A DNA stretch of 64,000 nt from Escherichia coli (GTDB lineage Bacteria > Pseudomonadota > Gammaproteobacteria > Enterobacterales > Enterobacteriaceae): NCBI RefSeq assembly GCF_003334355.1, contig NZ_QOWP01000011.1; one strand, 5' to 3'. Below are positions 33,901-38,533 of this stretch, piece after piece; the stretch's first letter is position 1, and each line of letters opens with the position of its first letter. The position numbers are program-made.

Positions 33901-36900
33901 GTAAGCTCAACTACACCAAAGCGGAAGGTCCGGCGAAAGGCCAGCCGATGCTGAACACCGCAATTGATGCGGCAGAGATGATCCTGACACTGGCACCGGA
34001 AACCAACGGTCAGGTAGCCGTGAAAGCCTGGGCTGCCCTGAGCGAATTTACCGGTCGTGACCATACGCATCTGGCGCTGAATAAAGAAGACGAGAAGATC
34101 CGCTTCCGCGATATTCAGGCACAGCCGCGCAAAATTATCTCCAGCCCGACCTGGTCTGGTCTGGAAGATGAACACGTTTCTTACAACGCCGGTTACACCA
34201 ACGTTCACGAGCTGATCCCATGGCGTACGCTCTCTGGTCGTCAGCAACTGTATCAGGATCACCAGTGGATGCGTGATTTCGGTGAAAGCCTGCTGGTTTA
34301 TCGTCCGCCGATCGACACCCGTTCGGTGAAAGAAGTGATAGGCCAGAAATCCAACGGCAACCCGGAAAAAGCGCTCAACTTCCTGACGCCGCACCAGAAG
34401 TGGGGTATCCACTCCACCTACAGCGACAACCTGCTGATGCTGACTTTAGGTCGCGGTGGTCCGGTGGTCTGGTTGAGTGAAGCCGATGCCAAAGATCTGG
34501 GTATCGCCGATAACGACTGGATTGAAGTATTCAACAGCAACGGTGCTCTGACTGCCCGTGCGGTTGTCAGCCAGCGTGTTCCGGCAGGGATGACCATGAT
34601 GTACCACGCGCAGGAACGTATCGTTAACCTGCCTGGTTCGGAAATTACCCAACAGCGTGGTGGTATCCATAACTCGGTCACCCGTATCACGCCGAAACCG
34701 ACGCATATGATCGGCGGCTATGCCCATCTGGCATACGGCTTTAACTACTACGGCACCGTAGGTTCTAACCGCGATGAGTTTGTTGTAGTGCGTAAGATGA
34801 AGAACATTGACTGGTTAGATGGCGAAGGCAATGACCAGGTACAGGAGAGCGTAAAATGAAAATTCGTTCACAAGTCGGCATGGTGCTGAATCTCGATAAG
34901 TGCATCGGCTGCCACACCTGTTCAGTTACCTGTAAAAACGTCTGGACCAGCCGTGAAGGCGTGGAATACGCGTGGTTCAACAACGTGGAAACCAAGCCGG
35001 GTCAGGGCTTCCCGACTGACTGGGAAAACCAGGAAAAATACAAAGGCGGCTGGATCCGTAAAATCAATGGCAAACTGCAGCCGCGCATGGGTAACCGCGC
35101 CATGCTGCTGGGTAAAATCTTCGCTAACCCGCATCTGCCGGGGATCGACGATTATTACGAGCCGTTCGATTTTGATTATCAGAACCTGCATACCGCGCCG
35201 GAAGGCAGCAAATCGCAGCCGATTGCCCGTCCGCGTTCGCTGATTACCGGGGAACGGATGGCGAAAATCGAAAAAGGGCCGAACTGGGAAGATGACCTGG
35301 GTGGTGAGTTTGACAAACTGGCGAAAGACAAGAACTTCGACAACATCCAGAAGGCGATGTATAGCCAGTTCGAAAACACCTTTATGATGTATTTGCCGCG
35401 CCTGTGCGAACACTGCCTGAACCCGGCATGTGTGGCGACCTGCCCGAGCGGTGCGATTTACAAGCGTGAAGAAGATGGCATCGTCCTGATCGACCAGGAT
35501 AAATGCCGTGGCTGGCGTATGTGCATCACCGGATGCCCGTACAAAAAAATCTACTTCAACTGGAAGAGCGGTAAGTCTGAGAAGTGCATCTTCTGCTATC
35601 CGCGTATTGAAGCGGGTCAGCCGACCGTGTGCTCAGAAACCTGTGTCGGTCGTATCCGTTATCTTGGCGTGCTGCTGTACGATGCCGACGCGATTGAACG
35701 TGCAGCCAGCACCGAGAACGAGAAAGATCTTTACCAGCGTCAGCTGGAGGTGTTCCTCGATCCGAACGATCCGAAAGTCATCGAGCAGGCGATTAAAGAC
35801 GGTATTCCGCTGAGCGTTATTGAAGCCGCACAGCAGTCGCCGGTTTATAAAATGGCAATGGAATGGAAACTGGCGCTGCCGCTGCATCCAGAATATCGCA
35901 CACTGCCGATGGTCTGGTACGTGCCGCCTCTGTCTCCGATTCAGTCTGCAGCAGACGCGGGTGAGCTGGGTAGCAACGGCATTCTGCCAGACGTCGAAAG
36001 CTTGCGTATTCCGGTACAGTATCTGGCGAATCTGCTGACCGCCGGTGATACCAAACCGGTACTGCGCGCACTGAAACGTATGCTGGCGATGCGTCATTAC
36101 AAACGTGCTGAAACCGTTGACGGTAAAGTTGATACCCGTGCGCTGGAAGAGGTCGGTCTGACCGAAGCCCAGGCACAGGAGATGTACCGTTATCTGGCGA
36201 TTGCTAACTACGAAGATCGCTTTGTGGTGCCGAGTAGTCATCGTGAACTGGCACGGGAAGCCTTCCCGGAGAAAAATGGCTGCGGCTTTACCTTTGGTGA
36301 TGGCTGCCACGGTTCAGATACCAAATTCAATCTGTTCAACAGCCGTCGTATCGATGCCATCGATGTGACCAGCAAAACGGAGCCGCATCCATGATCGAAC
36401 TCGTGATTGTATCGCGTCTCCTTGAATATCCGGATGCTGCCTTATGGCAGCATCAACAAGAGATGTTTGAGGCGATTGCTGCGTCGAAAAATCTGTCGAA
36501 AGAAGATGCCCATGCGCTGGGCATTTTCCTGCGCGATTTAACGGCGATGGATCCGCTCGATGCCCAGGCCCAGTACAGCGAACTGTTCGACCGTGGCCGC
36601 GCCACGTCACTGTTGCTATTTGAACATGTTCACGGTGAATCCCGTGACCGCGGCCAGGCGATGGTGGACCTGCTGGCGCAGTACGAGCAGCACGGTTTGC
36701 AGTTAAACAGCCGCGAATTACCGGACCATCTGCCGCTGTATCTGGAGTACCTGTCGCAGCTGCCGCAAAGCGAAGCCGTGGAAGGTTTGAAAGATATCGC
36801 GCCGATTCTGGCATTGCTGAGCGCGCGTCTGCAACAGCGTGAAAGCCGTTATGCCGTGATGTTTGATCTGCTGCTGAAATTGGCCAATACCGCTATCGAC

Positions 36901-38533
36901 AGCGACAAAGTGGCGGAAAAAATTGCCGACGAAGCGCGCGATGATACGCCGCAGGCGCTGGATGCTGTCTGGGAAGAAGAGCAGGTTAAATTCTTTGCTG
37001 ACAAAGGCTGCGGTGATTCAGCAATCACTGCTCATCAGCGTCGCTTTGCCGGTGCCGTCGCGCCGCAATATCTGAATATCACCACCGGAGGACAGCACTA
37101 ATGCAATTCCTGAATATGTTCTTCTTTGATATCTACCCGTACATAGCCGGGGCGGTCTTCCTGATTGGTAGCTGGCTGCGTTATGACTACGGGCAGTACA
37201 CCTGGCGCGCGGCGTCCAGCCAGATGCTGGATCGCAAAGGGATGAACCTGGCGTCGAACCTGTTCCATATCGGTATTCTGGGGATTTTTGTTGGTCACTT
37301 CTTCGGTATGCTGACGCCGCACTGGATGTATGAAGCCTGGCTGCCGATTGAAGTGAAACAGAAAATGGCGATGTTTGCTGGTGGTGCCAGCGGCGTGCTG
37401 TGTCTGATTGGCGGCGTGCTGTTGCTGAAGCGTCGTCTGTTCAGCCCACGCGTGCGTGCAACCACTACCGGAGCGGATATCCTGATCCTGTCGCTGCTCG
37501 TTATCCAGTGCGCGCTGGGCCTGTTGACCATTCCGTTCTCCGCTCAGCATATGGACGGTAGCGAGATGATGAAACTGGTTGGCTGGGCGCAGTCGGTGGT
37601 GACCTTCCACGGTGGCGCTTCTCAACACCTCGATGGTGTGGCGTTTATCTTCCGTCTGCACCTGGTGTTGGGGATGACGTTATTCCTGCTGTTCCCGTTC
37701 TCGCGTCTGGTGCACATCTGGAGCGTACCGGTGGAGTATCTGACACGTAAGTATCAGTTGGTGCGCGCTCGTCACTAAGCGAATTTTAGTTCACATAGAC
37801 CCTGCTTCGGCGGGGTTTTTTATGGGCACGGTGCGGGGTGAGTTGTCGGATGCGCTTCGCTTATCCGACCTACAGGGGAGGATATTGTTGGTCCGGTAAA
37901 CGCGGTGCCATCGGGCAAAATTAGCTCGGAGTAACAGGTTTTGAGTATTTCAGGAAGTGATGGTGGTGGGGGAAGGATTACTCAGCGCTGCGCGCTTCGC
38001 CCTTCGGGTCGTTGCCTGCGGCAACGCTCTCTCGCTGGCGCTCAAGTCGAACCTTGGTCGAAGCTTCTCATCCTTCCCCGCTTGGGCAGAATATTTAATT
38101 GCGGATTCGTTTGAGAGTTTACGGACTTTTGAAAAGTGATGGTGGTGGGGGAAGGATTACTCAGCGCTGCGCGCTTCGCCCTTCGGGTCGTTGCCTGCGG
38201 CAACGCTCTCTCGCTGGCGCTCAAGTCGAACCTTGGTCGAAGCTTCTCATCCTTCCCCGCTTGGGCAGAATATTTAATTGCGGATTCGTTTGAGAGTTTA
38301 CGGACTTTTGAAAAGTGATGGTGGTGGGGGAAGGATTACTCAGCGCTGCGCGCTTCGCCCTTCGGGTCGTTGCCTGCGGCAACGCTCTCTCGCTGGCGCT
38401 CAAGTCGAACCTTGGTCGAAGCTTCTCATCCTTCCCCGCTTGGGCAGAATATTTAATTACGGATTCGTTTGAGAGTTCAGGGACTTTTGAAAGTGATGGT
38501 GGTGGGGGAAGGATTCGAACCTTCGAAGTCGAT

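Follow-up and report, generated by a model that had tools for sequence, protein, structure and literature searches.

Do the overlapping stop and start codons of the narGHJI operon, which encodes respiratory nitrate reductase A of Escherichia coli, mean that its genes are translated as a coupled series? The question is posed by a stretch of 64,000 nucleotides (nt) of E. coli DNA, contig NZ_QOWP01000011.1 of assembly GCF_003334355.1, referred to as the window, in which the junctions narG/narH, narH/narJ and narJ/narI are all overlapped. The overlaps are real and no artefact of annotation. By analogy with gene pairs studied elsewhere in E. coli, narGHJI, a standard operon, would show ordinary short-range translational coupling at all three junctions, a reading to which a probability of about 0.7 is given here.

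Genes and junctions of the narGHJI operon

The window is part of the E. coli chromosome. Positions 30900–38000 are 100% identical to E. coli PSS-12, and at least 80% of this interval is present in 5,416 of 5,426 complete E. coli genomes. Four successive open reading frames (ORFs) on the plus strand correspond to narG, narH, narJ and narI, and the RefSeq annotation of the PSS-12 record, converted to window coordinates, gives identical boundaries for the four coding sequences (CDSs; Table 1). According to the same record, the chromosomal context matches that of E. coli narA, with narXL and narK upstream and tyrTV/rtT and purU downstream.

The identity of the genes was assessed with NCBIfam equivalog models. 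The narG product scores 2598 bits against TIGR01580 (curated cut-off 1084), the narH product 1025 bits against TIGR01660 (cut-off 524, alignment starting at residue 1), the narJ product 209 bits against TIGR00684 (cut-off 59), and the narI product 425 against TIGR00351 (cut-off 106, aligned over residues 1–225 of 225). These four co-directional genes, all exceeding the equivalog cut-offs, form the respiratory nitrate reductase A operon. The score against a further NarJ model, NF011628, is 293, below that model's cut-off of 410. NarH is near-identical to PDB 1q16_B, with residues 1–512 aligned and one substitution, and NarI aligns over residues 1–225 with 1q16_C, 1q16 being the solved NarGHI structure. 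NarJ, which is no component of the finished enzyme, aligns with PDB 8jzd_A from residue 1. The operon of E. coli K-12 (b1224–b1227) has the same genes in the same order, with the same lengths (1247, 512, 236 and 225 residues) and the same junctions; the window strain differs from the PDB and K-12 sequences by a few amino-acid polymorphisms and in nothing of substance.

A preliminary description of this DNA had assigned the four gene names and reported an overlap at each junction, in the forms ATGA, ATGA and TAATG. The names are borne out by the family models, with scores well above the cut-offs, and by the concordant RefSeq annotation, and the overlaps lie where they had been placed, as both the sequence and the RefSeq boundaries indicate. 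The narG/narH junction reads ...gta aaA TGA (in full gtaaaATGAaaatt), the narH/narJ junction ...cat ccA TGA (catccATGAtcgaa), and the narJ/narI junction ...cac TAATG (gcacTAATGcaatt).

Table 1. Coordinates in the window of the narGHJI genes, their Shine-Dalgarno (SD) sequences and the three junctions.
Feature	Position	Strand	Description
narG	31116..34859	+	nitrate reductase A alpha subunit, 1247 residues; TGA stop at 34857-34859; ORF, TIGR01580, RefSeq
narH	34856..36394	+	beta (Fe-S) subunit, 512 residues; TIGR01660 from residue 1, PDB 1q16_B
narJ	36391..37101	+	Mo-cofactor assembly chaperone for NarG, 236 residues; TIGR00684, PDB 8jzd_A
narI	37101..37778	+	gamma (di-haem b membrane anchor) subunit, 225 residues; TIGR00351, PDB 1q16_C
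narG SD, AGGAG	31104..31108	+	7 nt before ATG; anti-SD duplex -7.4 kcal/mol
narH SD, AGGAG	34843..34847	+	within last narG codons (cag gag = Q-E), 8 nt before ATG; duplex -7.4 kcal/mol
narJ SD, GGAG	36379..36382	+	within narH tail, 8 nt before ATG; duplex -5.8 kcal/mol, weakest of the four
narI SD, GGAGG	37087..37091	+	within narJ tail (gga gga = G-G), 9 nt before ATG; duplex -9.5 kcal/mol, strongest of the four
narG/narH junction, ATGA	34856..34859	+	4-nt overlap; narH ATG 34856-34858, narG TGA 34857-34859
narH/narJ junction, ATGA	36391..36394	+	4-nt overlap; narJ ATG 36391-36393, narH TGA 36392-36394
narJ/narI junction, TAATG	37099..37103	+	1-nt overlap at 37101; narJ TAA 37099-37101, narI ATG 37101-37103

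Minus-strand ORFs of 360, 437 and 187 residues (31878–32960, 33099–34412 and 37098–37661) run antisense to narG and narI and are absent from the RefSeq annotation. Most likely they reflect the paucity of stop codons that is common in frames antisense to coding sequence.

Proposed translational coupling at the junctions

By textbook accounts the nar operon has a single promoter, and in the proposed mechanism narGHJI would be transcribed as a single mRNA. Each downstream cistron starts on or beside the preceding stop codon, and its SD sequence lies 8–9 nt upstream, within the C-terminal tail of the preceding gene, which is poorly conserved. A ribosome ending narG, narH or narJ would thereby already sit on the next initiation region or have just unfolded it. 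SD-assisted termination-reinitiation (TeRe) would then start the following cistron, whose output would track that of the preceding gene. Such an arrangement could help to provide matched amounts of NarG, NarH and NarI, and would have NarJ made beside its client. De novo initiation at the SD sequences would probably add to this, especially at narH and narI.

The geometry of the junctions is consistent with this mechanism. Written as distances, with negative values for overlaps in nt, and in the order narG/narH, narH/narJ and narJ/narI, the junctions measure -4, -4 and -1, all within the range of about -8 to +6 nt used for TeRe (PMC10666635). In each case the SD sequence (AGGAG, GGAG and GGAGG, 8–9 nt upstream) also falls within the 3' end of the preceding gene. 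Among five native E. coli pairs with a distance of -4, four were strictly coupled, and removal of the SD lowered reinitiation by 60–100% in those four (Huber et al. 2019, PMC6728339). The coupled pairs hyfHI, astDB, ydbH/ynbE as well as menDH resemble the nar junctions in combining an ATGA overlap with an SD within the upstream 3' end. Their coupling was established by stop-codon and SD mutants. Coupling depends on short distances, being reduced by 40–80% at +14 nt and almost abolished at +38 nt, with a collapse from about 20 nt (Huber et al. 2023, PMC10666635). Short-distance pairs in E. coli are moreover 4.5-fold enriched for subunits of heteromeric complexes (PMC10666635). By analogy with the native E. 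coli pairs, we infer coupling at the nar junctions, and its strength, as the most likely case.

Two comparative observations count for coupling as well. The triple overlap of narGHJI is retained in the paralogue narZYWV and in Klebsiella, Duffyella and Proteus, and the cross-species median distance is -1 (first quartile -4) at all three nar junctions in about 350 species.

Consensus matches for promoters and terminators were also sought at 30600–38000. Three promoter-like sites (5.5 expected from shuffled sequences) and five terminator-like sites (7.2 expected) were found, counts that speak to the absence of consensus matches only. With no excess of such matches over the shuffles, nothing in the scan points to promoters or terminators that would split the operon.

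Start codons and Shine-Dalgarno sequences

Overlaps of this kind could also arise if the annotated start codons were wrong, and the preliminary description had named alternative starts with better ribosome binding sites as what could remove them. All in-frame ATG, GTG and TTG codons between the upstream in-frame stop and +180 nt were therefore enumerated. In narH, narJ and narI alike, no start codon occurs between that stop and the annotated ATG, so a longer version of these genes is impossible. The downstream in-frame ATG and GTG candidates form SD duplexes of +0.4 to -4.2 kcal/mol, compared with -5.8 to -9.5 kcal/mol at the annotated starts; the best downstream alternatives reach -3.3 (narH), -1.8 (narJ) and -4.2 kcal/mol (narI). 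No alternative start thus precedes the annotated ATGs, and those downstream, up to +180 nt, have no usable SD. The annotated starts are first in frame and have the best SD sequences. The AGGAG motif before narH is also found in Klebsiella and in narZ.

That the overlaps are annotation artefacts, with true starts further downstream, is scarcely credible. Besides the much weaker SD duplexes of the downstream candidates, the family models for narH and narI align from residue 1. The N-terminus MK[IV]R[AS]Q of NarH recurs in 11 of 13 tabulated operons, ranging from that of Thermus to that of E. coli, and in NarH the first cluster cysteines begin at residue 16. Deposited structures carry identical N-termini, which are depositor sequences and hence constitute no independent proof. 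Nothing favouring downstream true starts turned up in the comparison of start codons, SD sequences, hidden Markov models (HMMs) and orthologues. The annotated N-termini are reportedly supported by the papers that first sequenced nar and by the crystal structure of NarGHI.

Predicted accessibility of the initiation regions

The accessibility of the initiation regions was predicted by RNA folding, as the unpaired probability averaged over positions -16 to +5; such values are thermodynamic estimates on naked RNA only. The leading gene narG has a mean of 0.54. Among the downstream cistrons, narH reaches 0.59, narI 0.47 and narJ 0.38, corresponding to the 95th, 75th and 50th percentiles of positions within the operon, respectively. 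In the predicted fold of the region -99 to +29, a hairpin takes in the AUG of narJ together with part of the SD, and no sign of occlusion appears at the narH initiation region. The partly paired start and average accessibility of narJ fit a dependence on upstream translation, and narJ looks the most dependent of the downstream cistrons in these predictions. At narH and at narI, which has intermediate accessibility but the strongest SD, free ribosomes may add to reinitiation.

The hairpin at narJ bears on a different route to coupling, namely facilitated de novo initiation. Translation of the upstream gene would melt the structure hiding the next SD and AUG, and a fresh 30S subunit would bind, with no reinitiation involved. 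The predicted pairing of the narJ AUG and part of its SD, together with the average accessibility of this site, is what this route would need. No occlusion is predicted at narH or narI, however, and the predictions share the limits of naked-RNA estimates. In addition, coupling needs no more of the upstream gene than its last 15 nt, and the extreme dependence on distance points to local reinitiation (Huber 2023, PMC10666635). Facilitated initiation is thus an unlikely explanation, and short-range reinitiation is preferred.

Nitrate reductase operons in other lineages

The operon of the window was compared with 13 others, giving a sample of 14. One is the K-12 paralogue, and twelve were obtained by tblastn of NarH against a plasmid collection (PLSDB), which includes several megaplasmids and mislabelled chromosomes (Table 2).

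Table 2. Distances in nt at the three junctions of the sampled nar operons.
Operon	G/H	H/J	J/I
E. coli narGHJI	-4	-4	-1
E. coli narZYWV	-4	-1	-4
Klebsiella	-4	-4	-1
Duffyella	-4	-1	-1
Proteus	-1	-4 or -1	-4
Paracoccus	-4	-4	+13
Rhodococcus	-1	-4	+4
Cupriavidus pHG1	-4	+37	+48
Ralstonia	-4	+17	+7
Variovorax	+14	+15	-4
Shewanella	+15	+10	+9
Thermus	+11	+9	+3
Bacillus	-11	+19	+17
Moraxella	+299	+73	-4

Overlaps occur in 10 of the 14 operons at narG/narH and in 7 of 14 at both narH/narJ and narJ/narI. A triple overlap is confined to the five enterobacterial operons, where individual junctions alternate between -4 and -1. In Enterobacterales, the overlapped state has therefore persisted while the exact form of the junctions changed. 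The paralogue narZYWV illustrates this: like narGHJI, it consists of four co-directional genes with three overlapped junctions and internal SD sequences (GGAGG or GGAG), but its pattern is -4, -1, -4 instead of -4, -4, -1, so that the overlapped state is common to both and the exact junctions are not. Outside Enterobacterales, the sample shows overlaps alongside spacers that range from +3 to +48 nt, with a single junction at +299. The operons of Paracoccus, Cupriavidus/Ralstonia, Shewanella, Rhodococcus, Thermus and Bacillus resemble that of E. coli in the order G-H-J-I, an SD before each start and mostly very short junctions, and differ from it in this mixture of overlaps and spacers.

It could be supposed that the overlap chain of Enterobacterales is held by selection. 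A single stream of ribosomes would yield NarG, NarH, NarJ and NarI in fixed order and ratio, NarJ would be delivered in cis to just-made NarG and NarH, and assembly would be co-translational and local to the mRNA; lineages with spacers would regulate the supply of NarJ independently. This extended proposal is quite improbable. With its four genes, three overlaps in a row, a paralogue of permuted pattern and natural orthologues bearing spacers, the operon offers a possible test case for how far an overlap chain fixes the ratios of subunits and chaperone of a complex metalloenzyme.

Moraxella osloensis differs most from E. coli, with spacers of +299 and +73 nt. On its plasmid p3, the narG/narH spacer (L007, 4202–4500) is a non-coding stretch of 299 nt, compared with -4 to +15 nt in the other operons. 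The Moraxella narG alignment ends normally, so the spacer is no annotation error. It holds C-rich and G-rich stretches resembling inverted repeats (ccccaccccaaccctcccc ... ggggatttagaggggg), and a TnpB gene lies directly upstream of narG on this plasmid. The spacer looks like an inserted repeat or a mobile remnant.

Several plasmids of E. coli and E. fergusonii, 110–175 kb in size (H17–H23, e.g. CP099015.1 and NZ_CP086606.1), carry a nar operon annotated as narZ-like, whose NarH is about 79% identical to the chromosomal one. This operon would represent an additional respiratory nitrate reductase carried on plasmids. A narH of 100% identity is found on other E. coli 'plasmids' (H11, H12). The PLSDB 'plasmids' NZ_OL790812.1 (4.09 Mb), NZ_CP093325.1 (5.52 Mb) and NZ_CP108785.1 (5.73 Mb) are chromosome-sized and nearly unannotated, and are probably mislabelled chromosomes. 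They served only as sequence sources for the Proteus and Bacillus nar operons.

Arguments against coupling

Several points weigh against coupling at the nar junctions. The pair bioBF, one of the five E. coli -4 pairs assayed, is uncoupled (PMC6728339); an overlap is therefore no proof of coupling, and membership among the coupled pairs cannot be presumed for the nar junctions. The searchable literature yielded no direct experiment on nar coupling, be it on coupling itself, ribosome profiling or stoichiometry, nor usable proteomic data on synthesis rates, and one paper merely remarks that the overlapped nar genes of Sphingopyxis 'suggest' coupling. In Huber 2023, narH/narJ and narJ/narI carry the label 'CMPLX not' (PMC10666635). 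NarJ serves as a chaperone, not as a stoichiometric subunit, and the rationale of 'precise stoichiometry' is not obviously applicable at two of the three junctions. Given the predicted openness of the narH site and the strong narI SD (-9.5 kcal/mol), free ribosomes could start there independently. Finally, the overlaps are not kept outside Enterobacterales, for instance in Shewanella, Thermus, Cupriavidus and Moraxella, and overlap is therefore not required for a working nitrate reductase.

Some of these points favour a reading in which the overlaps are a neutral by-product of a compact operon, with little regulatory effect. Free 30S subunits would start the cistrons mostly de novo, each at its own SD sequence, and an ATGA, or a start codon preceded by TA or TG, would give an automatic stop to an upstream frame that lacks its own. 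Every downstream nar gene indeed has its own SD at normal spacing, and the accessibility predicted for the narH site equals that of narG, the leading gene. NarH begins with M-K in 12 of 13 tabulated operons (ATG AAR; TTG AAG in Bacillus), whether or not narG overlaps, and narY likewise begins with ATGAAA. This start creates ATGA (TTGA in Bacillus), so the out-of-frame TGA, acting as a 'trap', exists irrespective of whether narG reaches it. The C-terminal tails bearing the SD sequences and stops lie outside the conserved cores and diverge widely between taxa; the stop follows the end of the narG HMM by 12 residues and that of the narH HMM by 19. Using those bases twice thus costs little. The gain and loss of nar overlaps across lineages and the uncoupled bioBF pair fit the same picture, and a published simulation study traces the origin of overlaps to the loss and replacement of start and stop codons (PMC3887535). 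Against this stand the strict coupling of the four other native -4 pairs (PMC6728339), the triple overlap retained by all five enterobacterial operons despite turnover between -4 and -1, and cross-species distances tightly centred on -4 and -1 (PMC10666635). A neutral origin with little effect on translation is therefore rather unlikely, as is the automatic-stop account that goes with it.

Ordinary short-range coupling remains the preferred reading. The preliminary description had gone further and spoken of tightly coupled translation. Its core is reasonable by analogy, since an overlap with an internal SD usually couples in E. coli, but 'tightly' exceeds what the sequence can support, given the uncoupled bioBF pair, the genes' own SD sequences, the predicted openness of the narH site and the poor conservation of the overlaps outside Enterobacterales.

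Frequency of overlaps in the window and beyond

The overlaps were also compared with those of neighbouring genes, using the annotation of the matching PSS-12 record with positions checked in the window. Over the 64-kb span, 8 of 34 same-strand adjacent CDS pairs overlap, or 8 of the 17 separated by at most 40 nt. At the latter rate, three successive overlaps in a four-gene operon are expected about once in ten, and the three consecutive nar overlaps are unsurprising with respect to chance. Five further stop/start overlaps in the window indicate that the feature is common: lolB/ispE (-1, position 14129, minus strand), prfA/prmC (-1, TAATG, 17346, plus strand), prmC/sirB2 (-4, 18176–18179, plus strand), narX/narL (-8, 27074–27081, minus strand) and oppD/oppF (-4, 55818–55821, plus strand).

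Of the unidirectional pairs of E. coli, 24% have distances of -8 to +6 nt, and in a set of 2.66 million pairs covering 1,695 species the value -4 leads by a wide margin, with -1 and -8 next (PMC10666635). The junction distances of narGHJI are already known from the tables of Huber et al. 2023, whose Supplementary Table S2 lists narG/narH at -4, narH/narJ at -4 and narJ/narI at -1, as well as narZ/narY at -4, narY/narW at -1 and narW/narV at -4 (PMC10666635). For pairs of clusters of orthologous groups (COGs), the median is -1 and the first quartile -4 throughout, with third quartiles of +12 for NarG-NarH (n=366), +2 for NarH-NarJ (n=353) and +11 for NarJ-NarI (n=351) (PMC10666635). The narGHJI overlaps are a typical case of the commonest prokaryotic gene spacing in a textbook operon; alone they are of little importance and raise no new question.

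Other features of the window

Downstream of the operon, two tRNA-Tyr genes lie on the minus strand (38497–38581 and 38791–38875), together with four RtT repeat units on the same strand (37961–38092, 38140–38271, 38319–38450 and 38616–38747). By BLAST, the window has 358 bp more than the otherwise near-identical PSS-12, equal to two RtT units. These extra units are copy-number variation of the known tyrT-rtT tandem repeat.

Positions 20335–21870 hold three tandem copies of an Ldr type I toxin with rdlD-family antitoxin RNA, about 535 bp apart. The Rfam rdlD matches lie on the plus strand (20573–20638, 21108–21173 and 21643–21708), and the annotation places the CDSs of the Ldr toxin on the other strand.

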